DNA from: a virus
Lineage: Duplodnaviria > Heunggongvirae > Uroviricota > Caudoviricetes
Direction: 5' to 3' (one strand)
DNA length: 28,416 bases
IMG/VR virus record: IMGVR_UViG_3300045988_053559
Location: 1-28,416 of that record
Shown one piece after another: positions 49-28,382 of this stretch (positions are counted from its first letter, which is position 1; every line of letters starts with the position of its first letter). The notes beneath the pieces are model-generated. The model saw only the letters and a program-made list of their open reading frames with translations. It was not told the origin of the DNA and made no database searches. Position numbers and translations under genes: made by a program.

Positions 49-1744
49 TCGTTGCCCAGGCCAGATCGGCGTGGCTGGCTTCTTCGCTGCGGCTGGCTTC
101 ATAGGTCGGGCGGTTGCCGCTGGCGGTGGTGGCGCGACGGATTGCCATGAATGACTGCGCAATGTCGATGTGCCCGGCGTCAAACTCCAGACGGCGGTGG
201 CTGATAATGTCGTAGGCCTTGAGTACCAGGGCGTTTTTAACATTGGGGTTGTAGACAAACTCCCGGACGGCAGGAAAGAATGCTTTCACGTTCTCATAAA
301 CCCCGTGACCAACGCCGGTTGAGTCGATACCGATATAGGTCACGTTGTACTGTTCGGTGAGTTTTTTGATGGCGTCAGCCTGGGCGCGGAAGTCCATCCC
401 GCGCCACTGGTGACGCTCAAGAATGCGGAACTTACCACCCGGCACGGCTGGCGGAGCCACCACCACGCATCCGGCACTGTCGCCGTTCTGCGTACCTTTT
501 GCCGGGTCATAACCGATCCACACTTCGCGCCAGCCAAACGGGCGCAGGGCCAGTGCATGAAAGTCGGTCCAGACTTCCCAGCTGTCCACCATGCACGCCT
601 GCAGTTCGCTGAGCGGGAACACGGACGCGAGATCGTCCACGAACTCGCACATCAGCAGGTTCTGGTATTCGTCCGGGCTGTACTCCATGCGTAGCTGGTC
701 GAGGTCGAACAGGTTACAGCCGCCGCGCACCGCATCTTCCACGGTGACTATCTGGCGGTATTGCCCGTCTGCGCACAGCAGGCCGGGGGCCAGATTGCTG
801 TGGGACAGGTCGATGTCCACCTTGTCAGCTTTGTTGCGTCCACGGTTGAACAGCGCACCGGACCAGAACGGATAAGCACTGTGGGTCAGGCTGGATGGCG
901 TGGAAAAATAGGTTTGTCGCCATTTTTTGTGAATAGCCATCCCGGAAGCCACTTTGCGCAGCTCCTGGAATTTCGGTATCCAGAAATATTCATCCAGATA
1001 CAGGTTGCCGTGATAACTCTGGGCCGTGCGGGCATTGGTGCCGAGGAAGTAAAGCGTGGCTCCGTTAGGAAGCACCATCGGATCGCCTTTTAGCTCCACC
1101 TCGACTTCTTTGGCGAAGTCGATGATGTATTGTTTAAAGACGTGGGCCTGAGCCTTACTGGCAGAAAGGAAAATCTGGTTACGTCCGGTAAGCAGGGCGT
1201 CAATCAGGGCTTCACGGGCAAAATAGAAGGTCGCGCCGATCTGGCGTGACTTCAGCAGGTTGCGGATGCGGTTGGTTTTTCCGGCTTCCCACCAGTGGCG
1301 CTGGTAGTTGAACATGGAGGAATGGAAGATTTCTTCCAGCTTCTCAATCTGTTCATCAGTGAAAACGTTCTTTTCCGGCTGACGACGCGGGCCTTTGTTG
1401 CGGTTGGCGACGTTAGGGTTTAAGTCGGCTTCGTTGCCGCCATTGTTAAACTTGCCGATCCGCGCGTGGCGCTCAGACTGGCGCGCCAGCAGGTCAATCT
1501 CTTTGAAATCTTTCCCTTCTTTGTGCTCCTTCATGATGAGCTGGCAGTAGCGTGCGGCGGTGGTGAGCTGCATCTGATCCAGCGGCCCATAGTCACCCCA
1601 CTTGTCGCGTTTTTTCCAGCTGTGAACGGTTGCAACTTTCTCGCCCAGCATTTCAGCAATGCGGGCTACGCGGTATCCCTGAAAGTACAGCAGCATGGCC
1701 TGCCGACGGGGATCGAGATCTGCGGGTGTCAGTGTGGTGTTCAT
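49..1744 (-). CDS. P: Terminase large (ATPase) subunit, P2 gpP-like; 3' end truncated by the contig/adapter boundary
   Basis: Minus-strand ATG at 1744..1742, open frame to the adapter with no stop (hence absent from the ORF track). Translation MNTTLTPADLDPRRQAMLLYFQGYRVARIAEMLG... Divergent from O as in P2. Confidence 0.8.
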
Positions 1745-1790
1745 GGCACAAACCTACAGCCTTGAATGAAGGCTTTCCCCGCCTGCGGTT

Positions 1791-1808
1791 TGTGTGGTTG
1801 TCGGTACA
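1791..1808. promoter_or_regulatory. TGT-N12-ACA dyad in the P/O divergent intergenic region; candidate Ogr-type late-activator site for the P2-like late promoters
   Basis: tgtgtggttgtcggtaca fits the P2 late-promoter dyad; centre lies 87 bp before the O ATG and 55 bp before the P ATG. Confidence 0.4.
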
Positions 1809-1886
1809 AATACCGCGCATTGTTTCACTGCCCCCATCACCGCAACCATAAGGCTCCAGTAAGTTTTTTCTAACGGAGCACGGCTC

Positions 1887-2720
1887 ATGACAGTGAAAGC
1901 AAAGCGTTTTCGCATCGGGGTGGAAGGTGCCACTACCGACGGACGTGAAATCCAGCGTGAATGGCTGGAACAGATGGCAGCCAGCTACAACCCGGCGGTG
2001 TATACCGCGCTGATTAACCTTGAGCACATTAAGTCTTATCTGCCGGACAGCACCTTTAACCGCTACGGCAAGGTGACGGCGCTGTTTGCTGAAGAAATCA
2101 CGGAAGGTCCGCTGGCGGGCAAGATGGCGCTGTATGCCGACGTTGAGCCAACGGAGTCCCTGGTGGAGCTGGTGAAAAAAGGCCAGAAATTATTCACATC
2201 TATGGAAGTCAGCCCGAAGTTTGCTGATACGGGCAAAGCCTACCTGGTCGGCCTGGCGGCCACTGATGACCCTGCCAGTCTGGGCACTGAAATGCTGACA
2301 TTCAGCGCCAGTGCAGCCCATAACCCGCTGGCAAACCGCAAGCAGAATCCCGCCAATCTTTTTACCGCTGCAGAGGAAACGGTGATCGAACTGGAAGAAA
2401 TCCAGGAGGACAAGCCGTCCCTGTTTGCCCGTGTCACGGCGCTGTTTACCAAAAAAGAGCAGTCCGATGACGCCCGGTTCTCTGATGTGCATAAGGCCGT
2501 GGAGCTGGTCGCCACTGAGCAGCAGAACCTGAGCGCACGCACCGAAAAATCCCTGTCTGAGCAGGAAGAACGCCTGTCTGAGCTGGAGACTGCTCTGCAG
2601 GAGCAGCAAACCGCCTTTAACGAACTGGTGAATAAGCTGAGTCATGAAGACAGCCGCCAGGACTACCGCCAGCGTGCAACAGGCGGTAACGCCCCCGCTG
2701 ACACTCTGACCAATTGCTGA
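1887..2720 (+). CDS. O: Capsid scaffolding protein, P2 gpO-like
   Basis: ORF of 277 aa starting MTVKAKRFRIGVEGATTDGREIQREWLEQMAASYNP; GGAG ribosome-binding site 9 nt upstream; position between P and N. Confidence 0.9.
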   Translation: MTVKAKRFRIGVEGATTDGREIQREWLEQMAASYNPAVYTALINLEHIKSYLPDSTFNRYGKVTALFAEEITEGPLAGKMALYADVEPTESLVELVKKGQKLFTSMEVSPKFADTGKAYLVGLAATDDPASLGTEMLTFSASAAHNPLANRKQNPANLFTAAEETVIELEEIQEDKPSLFARVTALFTKKEQSDDARFSDVHKAVELVATEQQNLSARTEKSLSEQEERLSELETALQEQQTAFNELVNKLSHEDSRQDYRQRATGGNAPADTLTNC

Positions 2721-2736
2721 TGGAGCACAAAACCTG

Positions 2737-3795
2737 ATGAAGAAGAATACCCGCTTTGCTTTTAACGCTTACCTGCAGCAACTGGCACGTCTGAACGGTG
2801 TGGCAGTTGAAGAACTGTCCAGCAAGTTCACTGTAGAGCCGTCTGTGCAGCAGACGCTGGAAGACCAGATCCAGCAGTCCGCCGCTTTCCTGACGCTGAT
2901 TAACGTCACGCCAGTGACTGAGCAGTCCGGTCAGCTGCTGGGGCTGGGTGTTGGCAGCACCATTGCCGGAACCACTGACACCACCGCGAAAGAGCGTGAA
3001 CCTGTCGATCCGACGCTGATGGTCGATGTGGAATACAAATGCGAGCAGACCAACTTTGACACGGTGCTGACCTACGCGAAGCTGGACCTGTGGGCGAAGT
3101 TTCAGGATTTCCAGGTGCGTATCCGTGACGCCATCGTGAAACGTCAGGCACTGGACCGCATCATGATCGGCTTTAACGGCGTGAAGCGTGCGAAAACCTC
3201 CAACCGTAGTGAAAACCCGCTGCTGCAGGATGTGAACAAAGGCTGGCTGCAGAAAATCCGTGAGGATGCACCGGATCACGTCATGGGCAGCACCACCACG
3301 GGCGGCGAAACCACACCGGGTGCGGTGAAAGTCGGGAAAGGTGGCGAATATGCCAACCTGGACGCTGTGGTGATGGATGCGGTCAATGAGCTTATCGACG
3401 TGGTCTACCAGGACGATGACGATCTGGTGGTGATTTGCGGTCGTGAACTGCTGTCTGACAAGTATTTCCCGCTGGTCAACAAAGAGCAGGAAAACAGTGA
3501 AAAACTGGCAGCCGATATGATCATCAGTCAGAAACGCATGGGTGGCCTGCAGGCCGTGCGTGCGCCGTTCTTCCCGCCGAATGCGCTGCTGATCACCCGT
3601 CTGGATAACCTGTCCATCTACTGGCAGGAAGATACCCGCCGCCGTTCAGTTATCGACAACCCGAAACGTGACCGGATTGAAAATTTTGAATCCGTTAACG
3701 AAGCCTATGTGGTTGAGGACTACCGCTGCGCCGCACTGGTGGAAAACATCCAGATTGGTGACTTCAGCGCCGCCGCAGCAGAAACCGGAGTGTAA
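2737..3795 (+). CDS. N: Major capsid protein, P2 gpN-like
   Basis: ORF of 352 aa, MKKNTRFAFNAYLQQLARLNGV...; follows O in P2 order. Confidence 0.9.
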   Translation: MKKNTRFAFNAYLQQLARLNGVAVEELSSKFTVEPSVQQTLEDQIQQSAAFLTLINVTPVTEQSGQLLGLGVGSTIAGTTDTTAKEREPVDPTLMVDVEYKCEQTNFDTVLTYAKLDLWAKFQDFQVRIRDAIVKRQALDRIMIGFNGVKRAKTSNRSENPLLQDVNKGWLQKIREDAPDHVMGSTTTGGETTPGAVKVGKGGEYANLDAVVMDAVNELIDVVYQDDDDLVVICGRELLSDKYFPLVNKEQENSEKLAADMIISQKRMGGLQAVRAPFFPPNALLITRLDNLSIYWQEDTRRRSVIDNPKRDRIENFESVNEAYVVEDYRCAALVENIQIGDFSAAAAETGV

Positions 3796-3798
3796 TTC

Positions 3799-4449
3799 AT
3801 GAGCCTGAGTCCCGCACGGCAGCATCGCCTGCGCGTTCAGGCTGAACAGGCCGCTCGCGAGGGTGGCAGTGTTCGCCACGCGTCGGGCTATGACCTGATG
3901 CTGCTGCAACTGGCGGAAGACCGCCGCCGTCTCAAGGGCGTTCAGTCCACGGTCAAAAAAGCGGAAATCAAGGTGGAACTGCTGCCGAAATACGCCGCCT
4001 GGGCAGAGGGTGTCCTGGCTGGCGGAGGCGCGCAACAGGATGACGTGCTGATGTACGTGATGCTGTGGCGCATTGATGCCGGAGATTATGCCGGGGCGCT
4101 GGAGATCGGGCGTCACGCCCTGCGTCATGGCTGGGTGATGCCGTTGGGTAACCGCAACGTGCAGACCGTGCTGGCAGAGGAAATGGCAGACGCAGCGCAG
4201 AGCGCAATGCTTGCCGCCACCGGCTTTGATGCTGATCTGTTGCTGCAGACGCTGGAGCTGACAGACGGTCTGGATATGCCGGACCAGTCACGGGCACGTC
4301 TGCATAAAGCGATTGGCGCTGTCCTGAGTGAAAGCAATCCGGCTTCCGCCCTTAATCATCTCAACCATGCGTTACAGCTCGATCCCCGCTGTGGCGTGAA
4401 AAAAGACAAACAGCAGCTGGAGCGCAGACTGCGCAATGACAGCCGCTGA
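3799..4449 (+). CDS. M: Terminase small/endonuclease subunit, P2 gpM-like
   Basis: ORF of 216 aa; GGAG ribosome-binding site; P2 gene order O-N-M-L. Confidence 0.8.
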   Translation: MSLSPARQHRLRVQAEQAAREGGSVRHASGYDLMLLQLAEDRRRLKGVQSTVKKAEIKVELLPKYAAWAEGVLAGGGAQQDDVLMYVMLWRIDAGDYAGALEIGRHALRHGWVMPLGNRNVQTVLAEEMADAAQSAMLAATGFDADLLLQTLELTDGLDMPDQSRARLHKAIGAVLSESNPASALNHLNHALQLDPRCGVKKDKQQLERRLRNDSR

Positions 4450-4544
4450 CAGAACGTGCCCCCGCGCACGGGCGGCACGGGGTGGCGAAAGGCACTGCCA
4501 CATCAAAATCCCGTCCACCGCCCTTTATTTCAGGAGAAAGCAGC

Positions 4545-5009
4545 ATGAAGTTTGTTGCGCCAGAACAGGCACCGGAACAGGCGGAAATCATCAGAAATAC
4601 GCCGTTCTGGCCTGATGTGGACCTGTCGGAGTTTCGCTGTGTCATGCGCACTGACGGCACGGTGACGCAGCCGCGTTTAAAGCAGGTTGCGCTGTCGGCA
4701 ATTTCGGAGGTCAACGCAGAGCTGTATGAGTTTCGCAGACGTCAGCAGATGCTGGGATATGCCTCGCTGGCAGAGGTTCCGGCGGAACAGCTGGACGGCA
4801 AAAGTGAGCGCATTCATCACTATTTCAACGCGGTTTACTGCTGGGCACGCGCCATGCTCAACGAGCGTTATCAGGACTATGACGCCACGGCATCCGGTGT
4901 GAAGCGGGGCGAGGAACTGGCGGAAGCAAGCGGTGATTTGTGGCGTGACGCCCGCTGGGCCATCAGCCGGGTGCAGGATGCGCCGCACTGCACAGTGGAG
5001 CTTATCTGA
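4545..5009 (+). CDS. L: Head completion/stabilisation protein, P2 gpL-like
   Basis: Track ORF 4482..5009; start placed at ATG 4545 (MKFVAPEQ...) because it is preceded by AGGAGA. Confidence 0.75.
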   Translation: MKFVAPEQAPEQAEIIRNTPFWPDVDLSEFRCVMRTDGTVTQPRLKQVALSAISEVNAELYEFRRRQQMLGYASLAEVPAEQLDGKSERIHHYFNAVYCWARAMLNERYQDYDATASGVKRGEELAEASGDLWRDARWAISRVQDAPHCTVELI

Positions 5010-5212
5010 TGAAAGTGCGTGCGCATCAGTATGACACGGTGGACGCGCTTTGCTGGCGTCATTACGGGCGCACGCAGGGTGTCACGGAGCAGGTACTGAA
5101 GGCAAATCCGGGGCTTGCCGAATACGGCCCCTTTTTACCTCACGGGCTGCAGGTGGAGCTGCCGGACATTCCGACCACCACCACCGTGCAGACCGTCCAG
5201 CTATGGGACTGA
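5009..5212 (+). CDS. X: Tail protein X, P2 gpX-like
   Basis: 67 aa, the same length as P2 gpX; start overlaps the L stop (TGATG). Confidence 0.8.
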   Translation: MKVRAHQYDTVDALCWRHYGRTQGVTEQVLKANPGLAEYGPFLPHGLQVELPDIPTTTTVQTVQLWD

Positions 5213-5215
5213 ATT

Positions 5216-5431
5216 ATGACGCTTGAGCGAATCAGCGCCTTTATCACGTACTGCATCGCCGTTGTGCTGGCCTGGCTGGGCGATTTGTCCATCAAGGATG
5301 CCTCAACGCTGGGCGGCCTGATGATTGGTGTACTGATGCTGGCTATCAACTGGTACTACAAACACAAAGCCTACCAGCTTCTGCGCGACGGGCAGATCTC
5401 GCGGGAGGATTATGAATCCATCAATCGTTAA
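5216..5431 (+). CDS. Class II holin, probable pinholin
   Basis: 71 aa with two hydrophobic helices (ISAFITYCIAVVLAWLG and LGGLMIGVLMLAINWYY) and a charged C-terminus; immediately upstream of and overlapping a SAR endolysin. Confidence 0.65.
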   Translation: MTLERISAFITYCIAVVLAWLGDLSIKDASTLGGLMIGVLMLAINWYYKHKAYQLLRDGQISREDYESINR

Positions 5432-5927
5432 ACGCTGCCTTGTCGGGGCCGTGCTGGCTATTGCTGCCACGCTGCCGGGTTTTCAGCAGCTTCACACCTC
5501 CGTGGAGGGACTGAAACTGATTGCCGATTACGAAGGCTGTCGTCTGCAGCCGTATCAGTGCAGCGCGGGTGTCTGGACTGACGGCATTGGTAATACGTCG
5601 GGCGTCATTCCCGGCAAAACCATTACGGAACGACAGGCAGCAGAAGGGCTTATCTCCAACGTGCTGCGTGTGGAGCGGTCACTGGAAAGGTGTGTGAAGC
5701 AACAGCCACCGCAGAAAGTGTATGACGCGGTGGTGTCATTTGCCTTCAACGTGGGGACAGGCAATGCCTGCAGCTCCACGCTGGTGAAATTGCTCAATCA
5801 GCGGCGCTGGGCGGATGCGTGCCGACAGTTGCCGCGCTGGGTGTATGTAAAAGGTGTGTTTAATCAGGGGCTGGATAACCGCCGAGCGCGGGAGATGGCC
5901 TGGTGCCTTAAAGGAGCTGGACTATGA
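5412..5927 (+). CDS. SAR endolysin, phage 21 R-like lysozyme (GH24)
   Basis: 171 aa; N-terminal signal-anchor-release helix CLVGAVLAIAATLPGF; EG...GVWT..G.G.T and SFAFNVGTGN motifs as in R21; GGGAGGA ribosome-binding site. Confidence 0.85.
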   Translation: MNPSIVKRCLVGAVLAIAATLPGFQQLHTSVEGLKLIADYEGCRLQPYQCSAGVWTDGIGNTSGVIPGKTITERQAAEGLISNVLRVERSLERCVKQQPPQKVYDAVVSFAFNVGTGNACSSTLVKLLNQRRWADACRQLPRWVYVKGVFNQGLDNRRAREMAWCLKGAGL

Positions 5928-6352
5928 CACGTGCGCTGGCGGTAGTGGCGGCGCTGGCACTCGTTGCGCTGGGCTGGCAGTCGTGGCGGCTTAACAGCGC
6001 CAGCCATACCATCGAAACGCAGCGCGCGGCGCTGAAAAGTAAAGCGCAGGAACTGACGAAGAAAAACAGCCAGCTGATCAGTCTGTCCATTCTGGCTGAA
6101 ACCAACAACCGGGAGCAGGCGCGGCTCTACGCCGAAGCAGAACAGACCAGTGCACTGCTGAGACAACGACAACATCGGATTGAGGAACTGAAACGTGAGA
6201 ACGAGGATTTACGCCGCTGGGCTGATACTCCTTTGCCTGCTGACATTATCCGGCTGCGGGAACGTCCGGCACTCACCGGAGGTGCAGCTTACCGTCAGTG
6301 GGTGTCCGCGAGTGACGCCGTGTCGGCTGGATCAGGCAGCGCCGCGCACTAA
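5924..6352 (+). CDS. lysB: i-spanin, LysB/Rz-like
   Basis: 142 aa; N-terminal transmembrane helix (ALAVVAALALVALGW) then a charged coiled-coil-like region; ATGA overlap with the endolysin stop. Confidence 0.7.
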   Translation: MTRALAVVAALALVALGWQSWRLNSASHTIETQRAALKSKAQELTKKNSQLISLSILAETNNREQARLYAEAEQTSALLRQRQHRIEELKRENEDLRRWADTPLPADIIRLRERPALTGGAAYRQWVSASDAVSAGSGSAAH

Positions 6353-6485
6353 CGGTGATCTGAACGCATTGCTGGATGAAACGGAGGTCGCCTGGGCGGT
6401 CTGTGCAGACAAAGTGGACATGATTATTGCGTGTCAGGAGCGAAACAGTGAACAAACCACAATCCCTGCGCCACGCCCTCAATAA
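6195..6485 (+). CDS. lysC: o-spanin lipoprotein, LysC/Rz1-like, starting inside lysB in another frame
   Basis: GTG start; signal peptide with lipobox LTLSGC; overlaps the 3' part of lysB and extends past it. Confidence 0.65.
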   Translation: MRTRIYAAGLILLCLLTLSGCGNVRHSPEVQLTVSGCPRVTPCRLDQAAPRTNGDLNALLDETEVAWAVCADKVDMIIACQERNSEQTTIPAPRPQ

Positions 6486-6879
6486 AGCAGTGCCTTATGT
6501 CCGCAATAACCCGGACAAACTGCATCTGTTTGTGGATAACGGTTCGCTGGTTGCCACGGGGGCCAGCTCCATGTCATGGGAGTACCGCTATACCCTGAAC
6601 GTGGTGATTGAGGATTTCAGCGGCGACCAGAATCTGCTGATGGCCCCGGTTTTGCTGTGGCTGCGGGATAATCAGCCTGATGCCATCAATAACCCGGCGT
6701 TACGGGAAAAGTTATTCACCTTTGAGCTGGATATTCTGCGCAATGATGTCTGTGATATCAGCCTTAACCTGCAACTGACGGAGCGTGTGCTGGTCAGCAC
6801 TGATGGCAGTGTGTCGAGTGTTGAAACTGTAGCGGAACCCGATGAACCTGAAGAAATGTGGACGGTGAAACGTGGCTGA
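6448..6879 (+). CDS. R: Tail completion protein, P2 gpR-like
   Basis: Track ORF 6427..6879 begins at a TTG; GTG at 6448 has an AGGAG ribosome-binding site; sequence PQSLRHALNKAVPYVRNNPDKLHLFVDNGS... Confidence 0.8.
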   Translation: MNKPQSLRHALNKAVPYVRNNPDKLHLFVDNGSLVATGASSMSWEYRYTLNVVIEDFSGDQNLLMAPVLLWLRDNQPDAINNPALREKLFTFELDILRNDVCDISLNLQLTERVLVSTDGSVSSVETVAEPDEPEEMWTVKRG

Positions 6880-7318
6880 ATTGCAGAAGGTGGACGACTG
6901 GTTGAGTGCCTTGCTGGCGAATCTGGAGCCAGCCGCAAGAAGCCGTATGATGCGCCAGTTGGCGCAGGAACTGCGCCGGACACAGCAGCAGAACATCAGG
7001 ATGCAGCGCAATCCAGATGGCAGCAGTTATGAGCCGCGCAGAGTAACAGCACGCAGCAAAAAGGGGCGCATCAAACGTCAGATGTTTACAAAGCTGCGCA
7101 CCACAAAATACCTGAAAACTGCCGCCAGCGCCGACTCTGCCAGCGTGCAGTTTGAAGGTAAGGTGCAGCGCATTGCCCGTGTTCACCATTACGGCTTGCG
7201 CGATCGCGTCAGTCGCAAAGGACCTGAGGTCCGTTACGCAGAGCGTCGCCTTCTGGGTGTAAATGATGATGTTGAGGCAATGACCCGCGACATGATTCTG
7301 CAATGGCTGGCGGGGTGA
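6872..7318 (+). CDS. S: Tail completion protein, P2 gpS-like
   Basis: 148 aa; GTG start overlapping the R stop; P2 order R-S. Confidence 0.8.
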   Translation: MAELQKVDDWLSALLANLEPAARSRMMRQLAQELRRTQQQNIRMQRNPDGSSYEPRRVTARSKKGRIKRQMFTKLRTTKYLKTAASADSASVQFEGKVQRIARVHHYGLRDRVSRKGPEVRYAERRLLGVNDDVEAMTRDMILQWLAG

Positions 7319-7386: not shown

Positions 7387-7965
7387 ATGAACGCACAATT
7401 AACCGAAATCATGCGCCTTATCACCAACCTGATCCGCACAGGTGTAGTCACCGAAGTGGACAGGGCAAACTGGCTGTGTCGGGTGAAAACTGGCGACCTC
7501 GAAACCAACTGGATTAACTGGCTGACACTGCGCGCGGGCAAATCGCGCACCTGGTGGAAACCGTCTGTGGGTGAGCAGGTTGTGCTGTTCAGCCTTGGCG
7601 GCAATCTGGAAACCGCGTTTGCCCTGCCTGCGGTCTACTCAAACCAGTTTCCGCCACCTTCAGGCTCTGAGGACGGCAACGTGACGGAATACCCGGACGG
7701 CGGCTGGTTTGAATACGAACCCGCCACCGGGCGCTGGTATGTTAGGGGCATCAAATCAATGGTCATTGAGGCCGCTGACAATATCACCCTGAAAACCAGT
7801 GAGTTTGTGCTGGAGGCTGACCGCACGCGTATTAACAGCGAAGTGGTGATCAATGGTGGCGTTACCCAGGGCGGCGGAGCGATGAGCTCTAACGGGATTG
7901 TGGTTGATGCGCATCAGCATACTGGCGTCCTGAAAGGCGGCGATACAACCGGAGGCCCGGTATGA
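7387..7965 (+). CDS. V: Baseplate assembly/spike protein, P2 gpV-like
   Basis: 192 aa, MNAQLTEIMRLITNLIRTGVVTEVD... Confidence 0.85.
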   Translation: MNAQLTEIMRLITNLIRTGVVTEVDRANWLCRVKTGDLETNWINWLTLRAGKSRTWWKPSVGEQVVLFSLGGNLETAFALPAVYSNQFPPPSGSEDGNVTEYPDGGWFEYEPATGRWYVRGIKSMVIEAADNITLKTSEFVLEADRTRINSEVVINGGVTQGGGAMSSNGIVVDAHQHTGVLKGGDTTGGPV

Positions 7966-8321
7966 CGCTTTATAGCGGGATGAACAATACCAGCGGCAAA
8001 GTCATTACTGATATTGATCATCTGCGCCAGTCGGTGCGGGACATTCTGCTGACACCGCAGGGTAGCCGCATTGCCCGCCGGGAATATGGATCCCTCCTGT
8101 CGGTTTTAATAGATCAGCCACAAAATCCGGCATTACGCCTGCAGGTCATGTCGGCAGTGTATGTGGCGCTGAGTCGCTGGGAGCCACGGCTGACGCTGGA
8201 TTCCATTACCATCAACAGCAACTTTGACGGTTCTATGGTGGTGGAGCTGACCGGGCGGCGGAATAACGGTGTGCCTGTGTCCCTTTCCGTATCAACAGGA
8301 GCAGAGAATGGCAGTGATTGA
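7962..8321 (+). CDS. W: Baseplate protein, P2 gpW-like (gp25/GPW family)
   Basis: 119 aa; start overlaps the V stop. Confidence 0.85.
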   Translation: MTLYSGMNNTSGKVITDIDHLRQSVRDILLTPQGSRIARREYGSLLSVLIDQPQNPALRLQVMSAVYVALSRWEPRLTLDSITINSNFDGSMVVELTGRRNNGVPVSLSVSTGAENGSD

Positions 8322-18022: not shown

Positions 18023-18047
18023 TAAAAAATCCCACCGGAGTGGGACT
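18023..18047 (-). terminator. Terminator-like hairpin plus U-tract between tape measure and DNA circulation genes (possible attenuator)
   Basis: Minus-strand RNA AGUCCCAC-UCCG-GUGGGAUU followed by UUUUAU. Would lie inside the coding region if translation began at 18050. Confidence 0.3.
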
Positions 18048-18068
18048 CATTAACAGATTAATTTTTCA

Positions 18069-20315: not shown

Positions 20316-20671
20316 TACTGGTAATCCCCTTCTTCACCGTGGAACTCAAGATCAACCGTGCCTTCTTCGGCATTATGGTTCGCTTCGCCGTGCAGCCAGG
20401 CAGACGACAGTACATAGACCTGACCGTTCGCCAGCTCGGCAGTGATGGTCATCTCATCAGACGAGGTGATTTTGCTTACCGGAAAATTCTTCGGCACCTT
20501 GAAGGTCCCTTTGACATAAGGCGCACGGTGAGTTTCCTTGCGGTCCACTGAACCGTCCAGGCCGATGATGTCATCGTTAACCGTTTTGTTCATGGGCACC
20601 TCAATGCCGCCGGTCAGCGATAGCTGCTGACCGTCAATTTTGAAATAACAGGTTCCCCCGATACGGGCCAT
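20315..20671 (-). CDS. Tail tube protein (Mu M-like)
   Basis: 118 aa, immediately downstream of the sheath gene. Confidence 0.8.
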   Translation of the reverse strand: MARIGGTCYFKIDGQQLSLTGGIEVPMNKTVNDDIIGLDGSVDRKETHRAPYVKGTFKVPKNFPVSKITSSDEMTITAELANGQVYVLSSAWLHGEANHNAEEGTVDLEFHGEEGDYQ

Positions 20672-22167
20672 TATGCAGACTCCTCTGAATACTGAAGACG
20701 GAACTGATTAACCACGGCAAAGACACGCAGCTGGTTAACATAGTCAGGCGGGAACAGCGTGTTCAGGCGGTTCGGATCGCTGGCATCACGCTCCACAACC
20801 AGGTACTGCTTAAACAGTTCGTAGTTTTCCACGATCCCCGCACGCTCAAGCTGACGGTAGGTTGCCAGCAGTTCCCCTTTGATCACCGCCGGGGTGACAA
20901 TCGCCTGACCGGGACCAAAGCGGGTACCGTCACTGGCAAGCTTGTGACGCCCGTACTTACTGGTAATGACGGATTTCAGTTTGCGCAGTACATACGCGCT
21001 GGTATGCAGCGTCTCACTGTCGAGGTAACTGTTATCCGCAACCCCGTAAGCGTTTTTCCTGTACGTGGTGACATCACGCTGAATGCGTAGTACCCCGCTT
21101 TCGACATACGCCGTTGCCACGCCATGAGACAGCAGGGTCTGTTGTTCGGTCATCGTGAACCGTTTCCCCTTCGGCGCAGGCAGCATACCCACCAGCTCAC
21201 CGGTCTGCGTGGGACGTGCCGGATCGTTGCGGATAAACACCGCTGCGCGGGCGGTACGGCTTGCCGCCAGCTCGTCGGCAGGCGTCTGGGTCTCTTTTTC
21301 GTACCCCGCCAGGGTAATGTGCTGCTGGTTAAACTGGTCACCTGCGGTCACCAGTTCTGACAGCGTGCCGATCTTTGCCGTATACACATGACCATACAGC
21401 TGACGCGCATAGCTCCAGCGACCGCTGGTATCGTTCATCTCGGTCACCAGCGTGTTAACGGAGGCCGTGTCGTTGAACGGCAGGCCGATATAATCAAACG
21501 GCTCATCCGCCATTGCAGCCACCGCGCCGGTGAGAACCGGAGCACCCGTTCCGGCGGTACCCGTCGCCACGGCAATCTGTACGCCCGCTGGCAGCACTTC
21601 GCCCCCACCAAAGCCGTAGTAATTGAGGCTGACAGGAATTTCATTCCCACAAAGCCCCTTATGACGCGCGGTCAGTGTGACCACGCCTGCCGAAGATGAA
21701 GCCATAAACGGCAGGGTCGGAACGGCATTGATGGCATCCTGGATACTGCTGGCAATCATCGTGACGTTATCGCCGTTAGTCACCGGTGCCTGCACGCGGG
21801 TACGTCCTACATACACATTCACCGTGCCGGTTTCGGTTGCCGCCCCGGTCACCGTCAGCGTAACTGTTGCCGCCGCACCTGTGGATTCAGGAACGGCAAT
21901 CACATACAGCTCGCCAAACGGGTCAGTCTGGCGATAAGCCTCGACCATACGCGCCAGCTGACTTCCCGCACCACAAATCTGGCGTGCATAGTCTGCCGAC
22001 GACATCAGTACCAGACTGTTGGCAACAATCTCTGCACCGTTATTGGCATGACCAATCAGCAGCGATGCTCCGCTGTCCTGTGCAGTATTCGCCGCCTGGT
22101 TATCCATTTCCGCATAAAACAACGGAACCAGCGTATTCGACGGAATGGTGTTAAAGCTTATCGTCAT
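20671..22167 (-). CDS. Tail sheath protein (Mu L-like)
   Basis: 498 aa; MTISFNTIPSNTLVPLFYAEMDN... Confidence 0.9.
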   Translation of the reverse strand: MTISFNTIPSNTLVPLFYAEMDNQAANTAQDSGASLLIGHANNGAEIVANSLVLMSSADYARQICGAGSQLARMVEAYRQTDPFGELYVIAVPESTGAAATVTLTVTGAATETGTVNVYVGRTRVQAPVTNGDNVTMIASSIQDAINAVPTLPFMASSSAGVVTLTARHKGLCGNEIPVSLNYYGFGGGEVLPAGVQIAVATGTAGTGAPVLTGAVAAMADEPFDYIGLPFNDTASVNTLVTEMNDTSGRWSYARQLYGHVYTAKIGTLSELVTAGDQFNQQHITLAGYEKETQTPADELAASRTARAAVFIRNDPARPTQTGELVGMLPAPKGKRFTMTEQQTLLSHGVATAYVESGVLRIQRDVTTYRKNAYGVADNSYLDSETLHTSAYVLRKLKSVITSKYGRHKLASDGTRFGPGQAIVTPAVIKGELLATYRQLERAGIVENYELFKQYLVVERDASDPNRLNTLFPPDYVNQLRVFAVVNQFRLQYSEESA

Positions 22168-22321
22168 CGGTGTTCACCTTTTTATTCACGCGCCGGATAT
22201 CACCCGCTGCTTCACGGCGCAGCCAGTAGTTGTTCTCGTCAACATTTCGCCCTTCGGCGGGCAAAAGGTCGCCGAGGGCAGGGTCAGGCACTGACCGCCC
22301 TTTAACAGGTTTGACAAACAT
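22151..22321 (-). CDS. Small hypothetical protein (56 aa) overlapping the sheath start
   Basis: Hand-translated MFVKPVKGRSVPDPALGDLLPAEGRNVDENNYWLRREAAGDIRRVNKKVNTDDDKL; GAGGA ribosome-binding site; below the 60-aa ORF-track cutoff. Confidence 0.4.
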   Translation of the reverse strand: MFVKPVKGRSVPDPALGDLLPAEGRNVDENNYWLRREAAGDIRRVNKKVNTDDDKL

Positions 22322-22329
22322 GAGGATCC

Positions 22330-22899
22330 TCAGGAAGGAAGGGTTATTTCGGTGTGATGTTCGATATCGCCGTCAGGCCCGTTACCGGGCTCGAGATAAT
22401 CAACATCAATCGCCAGCGTTTGCAGTTCATCCAGACTGTTCAGATCATCCTGCTGGCGGGTATCGTCTTCAGTCAGCTCGCTGATGACCGAAAAATCGAA
22501 CTGATAAATCAGCTCATGACGATTCAGATCCAGCAGCGTGCCGCCGTCATAGGTAATCGGGTTACCGCACGCCTCCGGGTTCCAGCCCAGCAGAGCCTTA
22601 AAGAGCATCTGCCGGACATCGTCCACCACATCATACGAGGCAAACTGACCGCGCTCATCACGCCCGTTACTCAGTATGACAACCACGGAGAAACCCTCTT
22701 TCAGCTCCTGCCAGTAGTCGGTCTGGCTTTTGTTTTCTCCCGGAGAATCATCACCCGGTACAACATATGCCGCCGGGAGTTTCAGCTTTCCGACCTCCGG
22801 CAGATTTTTGAACTGGGCCGCGCCTGCAACCCGGTTTTCAAAATACGGACAACGGGCACGCAGTGCAGCAATAACAGGAGTCAGTTTCATCTGTGTCAT
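22330..22899 (-). CDS. Mu gp37-like neck/tail protein
   Basis: 189 aa; position upstream of the sheath. Confidence 0.55.
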   Translation of the reverse strand: MTQMKLTPVIAALRARCPYFENRVAGAAQFKNLPEVGKLKLPAAYVVPGDDSPGENKSQTDYWQELKEGFSVVVILSNGRDERGQFASYDVVDDVRQMLFKALLGWNPEACGNPITYDGGTLLDLNRHELIYQFDFSVISELTEDDTRQQDDLNSLDELQTLAIDVDYLEPGNGPDGDIEHHTEITLPS

Positions 22900-23393
22900 C
22901 GCTCCGGCTTCAGTGATTTACGCAATTCCCGCGCCAGAAAATAGCGTGTCCAGCTGCGGTTCTTTTCAAGCGTTTCCACCATGAAGTTATTACGTGGAGC
23001 CAGTCGCCAGCCGCTGCCACCGGATGCACCACGATGATGACTGCGACGACGCTTTGCCCCTCGCCTCACGCCATAGAACAAAAAAGCCGGATAAAAATCA
23101 CCGGTGATACGGCGGTTTCCCTCTCCATTACGCTGGTTAGGGGCTATACGTGCCATAAAACCAGGGCGATGTTTACTGGCTCTGGGTACCATGTAACCAA
23201 TCGAACGAGCCAGGCGTCCGGTCTGATAACCGGGGTTTTCACCCGGTGCCGACCGCGCACGGCGCATCACCAGCCGACGGGCATCACGCATATGACGCTG
23301 ACCAATCGTGACAAACGCCCGCCGGACACGGGCGCGGTTAAAGCGCATCTCCGCGGGCTGCTGAAAATCAACGTGCAAAAAGGAAGTCGTCAT
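22896..23393 (-). CDS. Virion morphogenesis / tail completion-type protein
   Basis: 165 aa, basic; position between head-closure and tail genes. Confidence 0.5.
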   Translation of the reverse strand: MTTSFLHVDFQQPAEMRFNRARVRRAFVTIGQRHMRDARRLVMRRARSAPGENPGYQTGRLARSIGYMVPRASKHRPGFMARIAPNQRNGEGNRRITGDFYPAFLFYGVRRGAKRRRSHHRGASGGSGWRLAPRNNFMVETLEKNRSWTRYFLARELRKSLKPER

Positions 23394-23778
23394 TGTTGCC
23401 TCCGTGACTCTGCCTACATTCGCCCAGCTCCGTACACTCCAGCAGCAGAAAGCGCCGCGCCCCGTTCAGATCGCGCTGACGTTTCACCCGGTACACACTG
23501 TCACCGCAGACCACCTCATAATCAGCGGTGATCCCCCGGCGGTAACGAATAGTGATGTAATGGGTGATGGCGTCCCCGGTCTGCGCGGTTTCCTGCCAGG
23601 TGGTGGCACTGGTCTGGATAACCTTCGCCCATGTCCGGAACGTAACCGGGTATTGAGGCTCCACGCCAAAGTTATCCGCGGGCATATCCACCCGCAGGCG
23701 GATCAGGACGCGTTTATTCAGTTCACCGGGGTCCGGCAGAATGTAGGTTGCGCTGGTCTGCGCCTGACGAATTTTCAT
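23368..23778 (-). CDS. Head closure / head-tail adaptor protein
   Basis: 136 aa; position downstream of the head-tail connector. Confidence 0.55.
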   Translation of the reverse strand: MKIRQAQTSATYILPDPGELNKRVLIRLRVDMPADNFGVEPQYPVTFRTWAKVIQTSATTWQETAQTGDAITHYITIRYRRGITADYEVVCGDSVYRVKRQRDLNGARRFLLLECTELGECRQSHGGNNDDFLFAR

Positions 23779-24098
23779 TGCGGAAAGTACCTGTACGGGC
23801 CGACAAGCCAGCCAAAACTCTGCGGCATGTCGAGTTTCTCCACTTCCGTAACCGACGAGCGGTTTTCGTAAAAATGGCTGATAAGCATCAGCATCCCCAG
23901 ACGAATATCATCCGGCAGGTGCAGCCCGTCCGGATCGCTGTCCGGAATGGTTTCATCCGGTGCATAGAGCTTCCGGTTCAGATACGTTTCCGTCCGCTTT
24001 TGTGCCGCACATGCCAGCAGTTGCAGATGGCGGTCATCAGTATCGAAATCCTCATCCAGCCGGAGTTGGGCTTTAATCTCTTCCATTGTCAGAAGCAT
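23775..24098 (-). CDS. Head-tail connector protein (gp6-like)
   Basis: 107 aa; position after the capsid gene. Confidence 0.6.
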   Translation of the reverse strand: MLLTMEEIKAQLRLDEDFDTDDRHLQLLACAAQKRTETYLNRKLYAPDETIPDSDPDGLHLPDDIRLGMLMLISHFYENRSSVTEVEKLDMPQSFGWLVGPYRYFPQ

Positions 24099-24100
24099 AC

Positions 24101-24301
24101 TCAGCCCTCTTTACTGGTCGTGGCTTTTTTCTCTTTTGCCGCTTTACTGCTTTTTGCACTGATTCCGCGCTCTGCTAACCCGGCCTGAAGTGCAATCTCC
24201 TGCACCCGGGCAGGAAGCGCCCCGTCGTCATACTCACCGGCCCGAATGACCTCAACACGCATACCGTCCGGTGACCATTTCAGATCTTGTTTCAGGATCA
24301 T
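24101..24301 (-). CDS. Small lysine-rich hypothetical protein
   Basis: 66 aa ORF between capsid and connector genes; function unknown. Confidence 0.35.
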   Translation of the reverse strand: MILKQDLKWSPDGMRVEVIRAGEYDDGALPARVQEIALQAGLAERGISAKSSKAAKEKKATTSKEG

Positions 24302-24322
24302 GATTCTTCACCCGTCAGAACA

Positions 24323-24344
24323 GGGGGCGCGGTTCCGCGCCCCT
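24323..24344 (-). promoter_or_regulatory. GC-rich stem-loop just downstream of the major capsid gene (mRNA stabiliser or partial terminator)
   Basis: GGGGCGCG(G)/(C)CGCGCCCC perfect inverted repeat 7 nt after the capsid stop; no strong U-tract. Confidence 0.35.
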
Positions 24345-24350
24345 GAGTGA

Positions 24351-25556
24351 TTACGCCGCTGCAATCTTCAGCAGTTTGATGGCCTGCGAATCGACCAGCA
24401 TCCCGCCGGTGCGCTTGGTGGTATAAAAACCGACAAACGGTTTATTGGTGTACGGATCACGCAGAATGCGGGTGCCGATACGGTCAACGATGGTGTAACC
24501 CCGTTTGAAGTTACCAAATGCAATGGCTTTCGCATCAGCGGCGATATCCGGCATCTGTTCGTTTTCAGCGATACCGTAACCCGCCAGAGAGGACGGCTGC
24601 CCCAGTTCCAGCCCCGGACGCCACAGATAGTTACCCTCGGTGTCTTTCAGCAGACGGATGGCAAACAGGCTGTTGTTGTTCATCATGAACTTCGCGCCAG
24701 TGCGGTGTGCCTTACGCAGCGTGTAAATCAGTTTGATAATGGCGTCTGCGGTCACCGCGGTCGCTTCGCCGGATACAATATGCTGAAGTTTGCCGAACGC
24801 CCGGACCTTGTCGGTTTCATCGGTGGATTCATACGCCAGGAACCCTTTCGGCTTCTTGGTGCCATCGCCTGAGGTAAAGGCAATTTCTTCCTGTTCGGCA
24901 AATTCGGTTGCCAGCTCGCTGTTGATCCAGGCCTCCACGTTGAAGAAGGCATCGTCCAGCATTTTCTGGGTAGCCTGCGGGTTGCCGTAGATTTCCCCCA
25001 TGAGAGGTTCAATCAGCTCCAGTCTGGAGGTGGCAGTCTGGGATCGCGTATCCGTTTCCCCCACCCATCCGGAAGCCGTACCGCCCAGATTCACCAGTTT
25101 TTTGTAGTCGGAACCGCCAACGGTGATCACCGTGGCTTCCTGACGCATCACAACTTCATCTTTCAGCAGGTTAAGAATGTTGCGATCCAGTTCTTCCGGC
25201 ACGGCGTAGCCACCGTCTTCATCGGTACCCACCTGCAATGCCTTACGCTCCAGATCGCGCAGACCGTCTTCACGGCCTTTACGCAGGAAGCCCACAAACG
25301 CCTCTTTATGCTCGGTGGCCAGTTTATTTTGCGCTCCACCTGCCGGACGTTTCAGCTCAAGCAGCTCTTTTTCAAGGTCGCTTTTGAGATTTTCCAGCTC
25401 GCTGAGTTTCCCGTTCAGGGTTTCCACCTGCCCGGCAAGCTTGCCTTTTTCCTGCTCAATCGCATCCACGCGCTTGTCGTTCTTTGCTTTGAAGTCGTCA
25501 AACTTCTGCTGCAGCTCCTGCGCGACCTGTTCGACATCTTTAATATCAACCGCCAT
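24351..25556 (-). CDS. Major capsid protein, HK97 family, with N-terminal delta (scaffold) domain
   Basis: 401 aa; coiled-coil N-terminus; directly downstream of a prohead protease. Confidence 0.85.
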   Translation of the reverse strand: MAVDIKDVEQVAQELQQKFDDFKAKNDKRVDAIEQEKGKLAGQVETLNGKLSELENLKSDLEKELLELKRPAGGAQNKLATEHKEAFVGFLRKGREDGLRDLERKALQVGTDEDGGYAVPEELDRNILNLLKDEVVMRQEATVITVGGSDYKKLVNLGGTASGWVGETDTRSQTATSRLELIEPLMGEIYGNPQATQKMLDDAFFNVEAWINSELATEFAEQEEIAFTSGDGTKKPKGFLAYESTDETDKVRAFGKLQHIVSGEATAVTADAIIKLIYTLRKAHRTGAKFMMNNNSLFAIRLLKDTEGNYLWRPGLELGQPSSLAGYGIAENEQMPDIAADAKAIAFGNFKRGYTIVDRIGTRILRDPYTNKPFVGFYTTKRTGGMLVDSQAIKLLKIAAA

Positions 25557-25570
25557 CGTATTTCTCCTGA

Positions 25571-26257
25571 TTAGAAGTTCAGATTTTTCAGTGCATTCAG
25601 TGCAGAGCCCACATCCTCAGCGTCGCGCAGGGACAGTGCGCCATAGCCCCCGGCCATGAATGCTTTGGCCTGGGTACGGGAGAGTCCGACATCACGCAGG
25701 ACTCTTTCGATTTTTTTCTGTTCGGGGATTTCCCCGCGGGCCAGTGCGTTCTTGACGTCGCTGATCCGCGCCTCGTCGTTAGACGGGAACGTCACCAGGC
25801 TGACTTCCCAGAGGTCGATTTCTTTCAGCAGAAAGGCTTCTTTGCTCCGGTCGTATTCCCAGTCTTTCAGGACGTACCCAATAGAAAGGCCGGTTAACGA
25901 ACCGGCCTTCATGTGTGCATGTGCGCGTTTTGCGAGGGGATCATCATCAATCAGCAACCGTCCCCTGACGTAAAGCCCGACATCGTCTTCCTTCATTTCG
26001 GTGTAAACACCGATGGGTTCATCCATGCGGTGCTGCCAGAGCAGCGCAGGTAACGCTTTTCTGTCACTCCACGCCCGCAGGGAAGCAGCAAATGCCCCGG
26101 ACATCACCACATCATCGTGGCTGTCCTTTACACCAAAGACGGAGCCATACCCTTCAAACTCACCGGAGTCACTGACAGATTTCAGACTCAGCGGTACATC
26201 AAGACGTTGTTTCGTCTGCATTGGCGTTATCCTTCTGCTTACCGGCCTTACTGCCAT
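25571..26257 (-). CDS. Prohead protease, HK97 family
   Basis: ..DSGEFEGYGSVFGVKDSHDDVVMSGAFAASL..; true start may be ATG 26221. Confidence 0.8.
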   Translation of the reverse strand: MAVRPVSRRITPMQTKQRLDVPLSLKSVSDSGEFEGYGSVFGVKDSHDDVVMSGAFAASLRAWSDRKALPALLWQHRMDEPIGVYTEMKEDDVGLYVRGRLLIDDDPLAKRAHAHMKAGSLTGLSIGYVLKDWEYDRSKEAFLLKEIDLWEVSLVTFPSNDEARISDVKNALARGEIPEQKKIERVLRDVGLSRTQAKAFMAGGYGALSLRDAEDVGSALNALKNLNF

Positions 26258-27440
26258 CGGAGGGTTTCGTGGTCATGTTCATCGGTGTGAGATAGACATC
26301 ACCACCGGGACGCGGATTCATATCTTCCAGGTCGCGGCAGTCATTGGGAGAGTAAATTCCCCAGTTGATCCCGGTGGCGTAGGCTTCAAAACGGGACTTC
26401 ATATCCCCGCGCAGTAACGCCCCGGCGTTAAATTTGGCGTAATAAACGCCCTGCTTACTTTTTCGTACCAGTCCGGTGTTGATCCGCTGTTCGATGCGGG
26501 TCAGATACGGCACCAGTGAATAGTTGATAAATCCCAGCCCCAGCTCTTCGATATTGTTGAAGGTGGCGCGATCGGTGTTCTGCACCATGTGCAACGGCAC
26601 CCGGAACAGACGACAGATTTCTTCAAGCTGAAACTTGCGGGTTTCCAGGAACTGGCTGTCCTCGGCGTTCAGCGCCATCGACTTCCAGTCCAGCCCCATC
26701 TCAAGGATCATCGGGCGGTGAGCATTGCCAAGCCCGGTGTGACGCTCCTCAAAATCTTTCTTCAGGCGCTCATAAGCCTGATCTGACAGCGTCTGCTCTG
26801 TACGCAACACACCCGACGTCACCGCGCCATTGCTGAACAGTCTGGCCCCGTGCTCTTCGGTCGCAGCTGCCAGCGATATTGCCTCGCGGGCATAGGCGAT
26901 GGGATTCAGCCCCACCAGTCCGTCCAGCGTCAGCGTGCGCACATGCCAGATATCCTCCTGGCTCAGTACATCCGTGGAGCCATCCGGGAATGTGACCTGA
27001 TAGATCGGCTCCCAGCTACTGTTAAGCTTCGGTACCACACAGCCGGGATCGACGGGCAGCAGTTCAGCCACTTCGCCAAATGCTTTCACTTTGTAGGCGT
27101 AAAAGTTTCCCCGCAGGCACAGACAGGTGACCACCAGCTCCCAGAACTCCTGCGGCGTCATATAGCCATTGGGATGCGTGGAGATCAGCTTATGCAGACG
27201 TTCGCCAGTGGCTCTCTGCTTCAGGCTGCCGTTCAGGTGATACAGGTTGCAGGGCAACATCCCGACCGACTCCGCCAGCACCCTGACACAGGAAAAAACC
27301 GCCGTCAGTCGCATGGCCCGCTGGCTGCTGATCTGCTTTCCGGTATAGGTGTCGTAGGACAACCCGATAGCATCCGCCAGCTCTGCTGGCGTGGTCACCG
27401 GTGCGTCACTTTTTCGTTGAAATAATCCCGAAAAGAACAC
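26199..27440 (-). CDS. Portal protein, HK97 family
   Basis: 413 aa; position between terminase and protease. Confidence 0.85.
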   Translation of the reverse strand: MFFSGLFQRKSDAPVTTPAELADAIGLSYDTYTGKQISSQRAMRLTAVFSCVRVLAESVGMLPCNLYHLNGSLKQRATGERLHKLISTHPNGYMTPQEFWELVVTCLCLRGNFYAYKVKAFGEVAELLPVDPGCVVPKLNSSWEPIYQVTFPDGSTDVLSQEDIWHVRTLTLDGLVGLNPIAYAREAISLAAATEEHGARLFSNGAVTSGVLRTEQTLSDQAYERLKKDFEERHTGLGNAHRPMILEMGLDWKSMALNAEDSQFLETRKFQLEEICRLFRVPLHMVQNTDRATFNNIEELGLGFINYSLVPYLTRIEQRINTGLVRKSKQGVYYAKFNAGALLRGDMKSRFEAYATGINWGIYSPNDCRDLEDMNPRPGGDVYLTPMNMTTKPSDGSKAGKQKDNANADETTS

Positions 27441-27622
27441 TATTTACCTCCGCCGACAGACGACTGTGTACGGTCAAGATATCGCGCCACCAGCCACGAC
27501 CAGAACAGGCACAACGCCCCGGCAACAACAAACCCCGCCGGGGGATAAATCAGCCAGGCACCATACGCCAGCAAAAGCGCCCCCAGCACGCCCACCAGAG
27601 GCGCGAGAATCAGCATGATCAT
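27440..27622 (-). CDS. Small two-helix membrane protein of unknown function
   Basis: 60 aa, [49 protein letters not shown]..; translationally coupled to the portal (ATGA). Confidence 0.45.
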
Positions 27623-27633
27623 AATTACCTCAG

Positions 27634-28382
27634 TTAAAGCGAGCGGATCCCATAGGACTCAATGTGGTCAGACAGCGTGTCTTCTTTCTCGTACAGCATG
27701 GCTCTGCCAACCGCCATAATCAGCGCAACTGCACCATCGATTTTGTTTTCCGCCTGCTCTTTGACGGGCTTCACCACATCATCGTTACCCGGAATGGTTT
27801 TGCCGACCACGTTGCCGATACACCAGGTCATGATGGGATTGCCGTCATGATGAAAGCGCCCCGATTCAATTGCCGCTTCCAGCTCTTTCATCGGGTCGGA
27901 CATGTTGGTGTAGTTCTGAATGATAGTGATGGGGTTCAGGTCTTCATCAGCAAGGTCATGTGACAACCCGGTCGCCCCGAAGGGGTCGATGGGTGACTCA
28001 CTGACCGGGCTGATTTTGTTCGCCGCTTTGGCCTCCTCGAGGATGTAGCGATAATCCACCTCCGCACCATTGGTAACGGTCAGAACGCCCATTTCCACCC
28101 ATTTCTGAAAGCGTTCGGCTGTCCGTCGATCTTCATTTTTCTCGACGCTGTACACCGTGTCATACGGTACCCAGAAACGCGGGGCCACACTGTAGTAATG
28201 CGTTTTACCGTCAATCTCGCGGGTATAAAGTCGCGCCATGCTGTTCATATCCAGCTTACGCGCCAGGTCAAAGGCCAGAATGCACGGCTGCCCCTCGAAC
28301 TGCTCAAGGGTCAGTGATTTATCCTCGCAGCTCTGCCAGCTCACCAGGTTGAAATACGCCGAACGCGCCGACACCCAGATAT
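27634..28382 (-). CDS. Terminase large subunit, C-terminal nuclease part; 5' end lies beyond the contig end
   Basis: Frame open from stop 27634 up to the adapter junction; the track's start is an internal GTG; ..[27 protein letters not shown].. C-terminal motifs. Confidence 0.8.

Follow-up and report, generated by a model that had tools for sequence, protein, structure and literature searches.

In Escherichia coli (E. coli), homologous recombination between prophages gives rise to chromosomal inversions, as in O157:H7. Din-family invertible segments (Mu G/Gin, P1 C/Cin, e14 P/PinE and the cassettes of P2-like phages) carry two inverted 26-bp crossover sites in fibre genes and two alternative tips, each with its own chaperone, on opposite strands. 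The fibre segments of e14 and of P2-like prophages are invertible and flip constantly (PMC4272514), and Pin-family invertases act in trans on other prophages, as PinQ does on e14 (PMC12529663). Additionally, an ST131 preprint (10.1101/2022.05.07.487787) describes three prophages whose homologous fibre proteins are altered by inversions and a translocation. P2-like and SfV-like prophages, Din-family fibre segments, trans-acting invertases and prophage-prophage recombination are thus all known parts; a full-text literature search found no paper on a P2-like/SfV-like fusion by invertase-site inversion. Here, we analyse the tail-fibre cassette at which the late genes of a P2-like prophage meet those of an SfV/e14-like prophage in the IMG/VR record IMGVR_UViG_3300045988_053559, a whole contig of 28,416 nt (hereafter, the window). 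We regard it as an evenly balanced case that the window is the product of real homologous recombination, by inversion or deletion, between two ordinary E. coli prophages of these types.

The window shares with the Din-family segments the two inverted 26-bp sites and the paired tips and chaperones. It differs from them in that no invertase gene lies beside the cassette and in that the cassette ends abut fibre constant parts, one per phage; because of this second feature, both tips are predicted to be expressed at once. As in the O157:H7-type inversions, co-resident prophages would have recombined through shared late-gene DNA, leaving hybrids. In contrast to those inversions, the partners in the window belong to unrelated phage types with no more than the fibre-tip/chaperone cassette in common, and in the one finished genome with the same fusion, FDAARGOS_1287, the inverted piece is small and local (~45 kb). 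Phages SfV, SfI and SfII and P2 (Peduovirus) each match one half of the window, and megablast found no phage record holding both halves.

The cassette and its crossover sites

The features of the window were derived from its open reading frame (ORF) listing, from Pfam scans of its proteins and from megablast comparison with annotated genomes; comparison loci are denoted by L numbers. Closely related annotated counterparts are available for each of its genes. The join lies inside a 1.88-kb invertible tail-fibre cassette (10847-12730) bounded by the two inverted crossover sites. Between the sites are a Gp53-like tip and a chaperone of 143 amino acids (aa) on the plus strand, and a Collar tip and a 200-aa chaperone on the minus strand. 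The features at the join are the following:

9811..11217, plus strand: P2 H tail fibre, 468 aa (Pfam Phage_tail_fib N-terminus and Gp53-like_C)
10847..10872, plus strand: left crossover site, TTCTCACATACC-TT-GGTTTGGGAGAA, of the P2 H-side type, identical in the native P2-like loci L008 and L024 and in L001
11220..11651, plus strand: tail-fibre chaperone, 143 aa, in the P2 G position (Pfam Caudo_TAP)
11623..12225, minus strand: tail-fibre chaperone, 200 aa, hybrid allele (Pfam and allele comparison)
11670..11706: apparent exchange interval of 37 bp, flanked by the informative sites 11669 and 11707 and without differences between the two presumed parental alleles
12225..13007, minus strand: SfV/e14-type tail fibre, 260 aa, with Collar domain (Pfam)
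12705..12730, minus strand: right crossover site, CTCTCGAAAACC-TT-GGTTTGGGAGAA, of the SfV fibre-side type, identical in L003, L007 and L106

The crossover-like sites noticed in the initial annotation are real: the 18-mer ACCTTGGTTTGGGAGAAG occurs exactly twice, in inverted orientation (10856-10873 and 12704-12721), with 0 occurrences expected in shuffles. In native loci, the invertase-side site is TTTTAATAAACG-TT-GGTTTGGGAGAA in the P2-like prophages and TTTTCATAAACG-TT-GGTTTGGGAGAA beside pinE, and the inner half-site GGTTTGGGAGAA and the central TT are common to all four native site types. The H protein consists of the constant P2 N-terminal part joined at the left crossover site to the Gp53-like C-terminal tip, an architecture of 468 aa that is also present in the native P2-like prophage L008; the exact H protein had no record in the protein look-up. 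In the protein-position index, 1,502 blocks contain the exact 143-aa chaperone, and P2-like as well as SfV-like prophages are represented. The exact 260-aa fibre protein was found in 1,290 blocks, with an SfV-like context in every place shown. GC content is only 45-49% at 10.5-12.5 kb, lower than the 55-59% of the flanks. At position 12690, which is 14 bp from the right crossover site, the window has a private substitution that differs from every cassette and SfV-like reference examined.

In both prophage types, the native cassette runs from the fibre constant part through a crossover site, tip A with chaperone A, and the opposite-strand chaperone B with tip B, to the second site and a serine invertase. 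Thus, the native P2-like prophages (ATCC 8739, CP134905 and 1002W03) show I, H and chaperone, then the opposite-strand chaperone and tip, the serine invertase, the FI sheath gene and the remaining tail genes, and the native SfV/e14-like prophages show pinE followed by tip-chaperone and then chaperone-fibre-ymfQ-baseplate. Some SfV-like prophages have the homologous tip and chaperone only, without a cassette. No serine invertase (Resolvase and HTH_7 domains) is encoded in the window, unlike the native loci, which have one directly beside the cassette. Relative to its flanks, the cassette lies in either orientation across genomes (L005 against L007, L006 against L008, and L024), and it is therefore truly invertible. 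Because the cassette is base-for-base identical in the P2-like locus L008 and the SfV-like locus L007, it is a true repeat for short reads. The window corresponds to a P2 side with its cassette overlapped with a cassette and its SfV side, both invertase genes being gone.

The fibre-side site also marks a boundary of mosaic exchange in phages and prophages in which nothing inverts, since SfI, SfII and SfV match the window only from 12704 on, with 97-98% identity. The SfV-like loci L105 and L106, which have neither cassette nor invertase, still keep this site intact. In L011 (8855-12120), the full 260-aa fibre is followed by an extra tip/chaperone set, which suggests a multi-site, shufflon-like arrangement. 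Two pin genes ~0.9 kb apart, together with an IS21 in the tail region, are present in L010 (7555-9573) and L019 (12216-14234). In the RefSeq complete E. coli genome of strain Z1323HEC0010, a 1,830-bp "replicon" (NZ_CP148396.1) consists of the tail-fibre cassette only and looks like an unresolved assembly leftover.

The apparent exchange and the FDAARGOS_1287 precedent

Over 10847-11706, the window shows no difference from the common cassette allele. Over 11707-12154, it departs from this allele at 36 sites, and its sequence there equals that of the chaperone in SfV-like prophages with neither cassette nor pinE (JCKP02 and D217-5). In these prophages, the chaperone is followed by an acyltransferase gene near the pao genes, and their similarity to the window begins at 11640. 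Within the overlap, only position 11669 is informative, and the window has the cassette allele there; because the sequence is of the JCKP02 type from 11707 onward, the apparent exchange falls in 11670-11706. The exchange point thus appears to be at the 3' end of the 200-aa chaperone gene, away from the crossover sites. Site-specific exchange at the 26-bp sites, which was the initial expectation, was demoted, as mismatch maps place the informative switch inside the chaperone gene. The proposal of the initial annotation that the fusion or misassembly went through the shared repeat or the crossover sites is therefore borne out as regards the cassette, which is native to both prophage types, and not as regards the place of the apparent exchange, a 37-bp identity within a chaperone gene.

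On either side of the cassette, the window closely follows ordinary prophages. In the 1.5 kb left of the H site and cassette, it shares 99.9% identity with the 1002W03 P2-like prophage; JCKP02 matches the 1.5 kb to the right of the fibre site at 100% identity and 11640-20000 at 99.4%. Four sites in 12270-12343 again carry the cassette allele, unlike JCKP02; the cassette-less relatives L110 and L112 likewise do not have those four JCKP02 differences, and natural chaperone alleles are highly mosaic. The hybrid 63-mer across the exchange had 0 exact matches in the JGI metagenome, IMG/VR and species-representative genome collections, and the hybrid sequence had no exact match in complete E. coli genomes (best, 99.8%). 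Similarly, the exact hybrid 200-aa chaperone protein had no record in the protein look-up. A parental 63-mer had 7 matches in IMG/VR. The absence of the hybrid 63-mer and protein, with both parental alleles present, fits a recent, private event.

Both parental types are frequent. Of 5,426 complete E. coli genomes, 941 contain a P2-like module and 826 an SfV-like module that matches 80% or more of the left and the right half, respectively; the identity of either half to ordinary stand-alone prophages is 98-99%. Judging from these counts, the two halves are common, independent phage types, and strains such as LD22-1 carry both in native form at separate loci. A query with the flanks only, the cassette being removed, found both flanks joined in one of the 5,426 genomes, FDAARGOS_1287 (NZ_CP070071.1). 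SfV-type genes downstream of P2-like late genes were found in 0 of 80 P2-like loci from IMG/VR. About a quarter of these 80 contigs end at or shortly past the H-side site, which indicates that assemblies usually break there.

In FDAARGOS_1287, the P2 genes run from int to H and its chaperone, followed by the opposite-strand chaperone, fibre and SfV late genes, the early genes and the SfV integrase. Further on lie a few genes and an IS5, then the inverted block ogr-D-U-T-E-FII-FI with an invertase on the minus strand, a second cassette, pinE on the plus strand, and ssrA. The reciprocal junction, at which both invertase genes are located, is ~45 kb from the fusion. When the ~45 kb that separate the fibre-side site (~85.0 kb) from the invertase-side site (~130.3 kb) are turned back, two intact prophages are recovered in tandem at ssrA, and the gene order of FDAARGOS_1287 is accordingly that expected of a true inversion between two tandem prophages. 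The assembly of this genome is unambiguous, since the similarity between its two cassettes is only 88-96%. With the fusion and the predicted reciprocal junction both in place, this genome indicates that inter-prophage inversions occur. The reciprocal junction, with P2 FI-D beside an invertase, is also what the initial annotation had suggested looking for, and it is present in this one finished genome with the same fusion.

The architecture of FDAARGOS_1287 is the same as that of the window, with P2 P...H-chaperone facing chaperone-fibre-Mu-like tail-HK97-like head and 96-98% identity in both halves. Nevertheless, its cassette is of a different subtype, in the opposite orientation and with ~90% identity to that of the window, and the reciprocal junction is visible there and not on the window. 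The overall identity of only ~97% places the two in different lineages, and they probably represent independent events. The closest P2-like relative is integrated at ssrA, as are SfV-like prophages (FDAARGOS_1287 and L022), which makes tandem co-residence and a short, harmless inversion or deletion plausible. In FDAARGOS_1287, the SfV-type fibre (L001 24704-25303; NZ_CP070071.1 84731-85330) is annotated as an stfP pseudogene fragment and a separate gp53-like ORF; its translation is a single continuous open frame over the crossover site.

Recombination, misassembly and site-specific inversion

The nature of the contig bears directly on how the join is to be read. Both ends consist of non-biological sequence that we take to be Illumina Nextera adapter:

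1..48: Illumina Nextera adapter, non-biological (...CGAGAT, index GCTCAGGA and GTCTCGTGGGCTCGGAGATGTGTATAAGAGACAG)
28383..28416: Illumina Nextera adapter, non-biological (CTGTCTCTTATACACATCTCCGAGCCCACGAGAC)

The Nextera read-2 transposase adapter is present in two perfect copies, inverted relative to each other, at bases 15-48 and 28383-28416. The left end alone has in addition, as bases 1-14, the last 6 bases of P7 and the i7 index GCTCAGGA, presumably N704. Both ends are of the read-1 read-through type, and a search of the contig interior found no adapter remnants. The window is therefore a whole contig assembled from untrimmed Illumina short reads. As stated in the initial annotation, both ends fall inside large-terminase genes, gpP on the left and TerL on the right, each cut with adapter beyond it. 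The ends have no sequence in common other than the adapter, and neither is at a cos or pac position. A biological cause for these ends (cos/pac or shared repeats) was rejected in favour of adapter read-through, and their position within terminase genes is probably a coincidence or reflects breaks at conserved genes. An origin as a k=31 unitig (Logan-type), which would make a chimera almost impossible, was also rejected, since k=31 does not agree with ends that retain 34-48 bases of pure adapter. Since 34 and 48 adapter bases were kept, the final k-mer would have been well above 37 (we estimate ~55 or more), or an overlap assembler was used. Neither kind of assembler can create a switch within a 37-bp identity, and the hybrid junction was therefore probably already present in the reads.

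Under real homologous recombination, two separate prophages, one P2-like and one SfV/e14-like, would have been resident in one genome. The silent half of the P2 cassette would have exchanged DNA with the SfV-like fibre/chaperone genes by RecA-type homologous recombination at 11670-11706, in the 3' end of the 200-aa chaperone gene. This exchange would have joined P2 P...H-G to the SfV-like fibre-baseplate-tail-head block in opposite orientation, and P2 FI-D, ogr and the invertase would have been moved elsewhere by an inversion or lost by a deletion. All four fibre/chaperone ORFs are intact in the window.

Several observations weigh against such an event and bring us to the assembly chimera, to which we assign a substantial probability, somewhat short of even. 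According to this explanation, the source genome held an intact P2-like and a separate intact SfV-like prophage, and their homologous 1.1-1.9 kb of fibre-tip/chaperone DNA was collapsed, with the assembly path running in from the P2 side and out on the SfV side. The window is an uncurated short-read contig with untrimmed adapters, and its join falls exactly in the only DNA common to both prophages, where a mis-join would fall; as described above, the cassette can be identical in the two contexts and the 143-aa chaperone occurs in both. The native arrangement is overwhelmingly the norm, and the fusion is rare (one of 5,426 genomes and none of the 80 IMG/VR loci), although ~140 genomes would be expected to carry both types if these were independent. 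Compared with JCKP02, the order of alleles is cassette, JCKP02-type, cassette (12270-12343) and SfV, and a collapsed two-copy repeat gives the same order. Mosaic alleles within the repeat, and a hybrid sequence and protein absent from all collections searched, are as expected of an in-silico product. Additionally, homologous recombination would be expected more often in a 375-bp identical block than in a 37-bp one. The cassette is also hard to assemble, as its separate 1,830-bp record in a "complete" RefSeq genome illustrates. Nevertheless, graph assemblers normally halt at such repeats, and many contigs do end at this site; the first allele switch lies in the 37-bp identity, which is impossible for the k above 37 to which the retained adapter points; and the same fusion is proven natural by the finished genome FDAARGOS_1287. 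A rough estimate of the likelihood of a real event ranges from ~15% to 90%, depending on the assumed assembler error rate.

The involvement of a site-specific recombinase is very unlikely. In that case, a Din-family serine invertase (P2-type, PinE or another Pin in trans) would have inverted the DNA between crossover sites of both prophages, for instance a P2 invertase-side and an SfV fibre-side site. Din-family invertases require a cis enhancer and supercoiling and are inefficient over long distances, which counts against this route. The informative allele switch at 11670-11706 is ~1 kb from either site. If the cassettes were near-identical, site exchange would leave no trace, which makes this route indistinguishable from homologous recombination. 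In its favour, the inner half-site and central TT are shared by all native site types, and the cassette in the window is flanked by one fibre-side site per phage. The junctions of FDAARGOS_1287 coincide with such sites, with both invertase genes at its reciprocal junction, and the match of SfI, SfII and SfV from 12704 only makes the site a boundary of mosaic segments. The action of Pin recombinases in trans is documented (PMC12529663). A single functional hybrid phage with two morphogenesis modules is essentially excluded. All ORFs are intact, as such a phage would have them; however, it would carry two unrelated capsid/terminase sets and two baseplates, with a P2 set that has no sheath, tube, tape measure, U or D. 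Each half is moreover nearly identical to stand-alone prophages, and phage records with both halves are absent. This agrees with the initial annotation, in which two head modules were considered unusable by one virion: the window holds parts of two prophages, each incomplete here. Of the readings considered, the two put forward in that annotation, a fusion of prophages and a misassembly, both survive testing, and nothing else does.

Gene content of the two halves and implications

The P2-like half (49-11651) comprises, in addition to the H fibre and the chaperone in the G position, the following genes:

49..1744, minus strand: large terminase (ATPase) of the P2 gpP type, truncated at the C-terminus by the contig end (Pfam Terminase_5/6N/6C; homologue in L001)
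1887..4449, plus strand: P2-type head genes, namely gpO scaffold (1887-2720), gpN capsid (2737-3795) and gpM small terminase (3799-4449) (Pfam)
4482..7318, plus strand: P2-type L, X, holin, lysozyme, LysB/LysC, R and S (ORFs; annotated prophages with 96-99% identity; Pfam of L008)
7387..9814, plus strand: P2-type baseplate V, W, J and I (ORFs; Pfam Baseplate_J; annotated relatives)

The late genes follow the P2-like order P (on the minus strand), O, N, M, L, X, lysis, R, S, V, W, J, I, H and G, and P2-like phages such as Cartapus match this half with 96% identity. Neither the ORFs nor the Pfam scans revealed FI, FII, E/E', T, U, D or ogr after G in the window; in native P2-like relatives, the FI-D tail operon comes after the invertase. 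The description in the initial annotation of P2-like genes that extend through H and G and then stop before FI, FII, E, T, U and D thus agrees with both Pfam and synteny. The lysis region of the window (5905-5966) does not have the ~380-bp "DNZ54_00345 family" gene that is present in FDAARGOS_1287 between lysozyme and LysB (L001 17856-18293). The spacer between S and V is only 69 bp in the window (7318-7387). In P2-like relatives, variable cargo is found at the S/V junction and beside the portal gene (L002 450-1961; L006 14682-16025; L024 4267-4869), with examples including a Sll1717-family P-loop ATPase, a DUF4062 protein, a TIR-domain protein and a DUF262 protein.

The SfV/e14-like half (11623-28382, minus strand) comprises, in addition to the 200-aa chaperone and the 260-aa fibre:

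13011..18050, minus strand: Mu-like baseplate gp48/YmfQ, gp47 (J), gp46, gp45 and gp44, and a DNA-circularisation protein (Pfam)
18069..22899, minus strand: tape measure, tail assembly chaperone, tube, sheath, DUF2635 and tail terminator (Pfam and annotated relatives)
22896..27622, minus strand: head-tail joining genes, HK97-type major capsid (PF05065; 24351-25556), S78 prohead protease, portal and YmfR (Pfam and relatives)
27634..28382, minus strand: SfV-like large terminase, C-terminal nuclease part only, cut by the contig end (Pfam TerL_nuclease)

This half is 98-99% identical to SfV-like prophages, and it shows the characteristic set of that module: a Mu gp43-48-like baseplate, sheath, tube, tape measure, HK97-type capsid, S78 protease, portal and TerL. 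The initial annotation had described it as a complete second myovirus module. Pfam supports the opposite strand and the separate HK97-type head; completeness does not hold, as TerL is cut and the small terminase (TerS) is absent. The tape-measure/chaperone region (17996-20287) gave no blastn alignment to FDAARGOS_1287, where the flanks are 97-98% identical, and it aligns to JCKP02 and Sx181. We read this pattern as local mosaicism inside the SfV-like tail module.

If the window is an artefact, shared invertible fibre cassettes can mislead short-read assembly and virus prediction into "phages" with two head modules. If it is real, its cassette, flanked by the fibre genes of two prophages, might still flip under a Pin-type invertase in trans. 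We predict this only as an unlikely outcome, with which the opposite orientation of the cassette in FDAARGOS_1287 is compatible. One inversion would then swap receptor-binding tips between the P2-like and SfV-like fibres simultaneously. A larger inter-prophage inversion would misorient the attachment sites of each prophage, reversibly locking both in the chromosome.

As a real fusion, the window would be a second, independent case of unrelated prophages recombining via a horizontally exchanged tail-fibre cassette. It would add a useful detail for prophage annotation and for polylysogeny at ssrA, and no new principle. The cassette would then be a hot spot for host-range module swaps that can also scramble co-resident prophages, stranding the P2 tail genes elsewhere.

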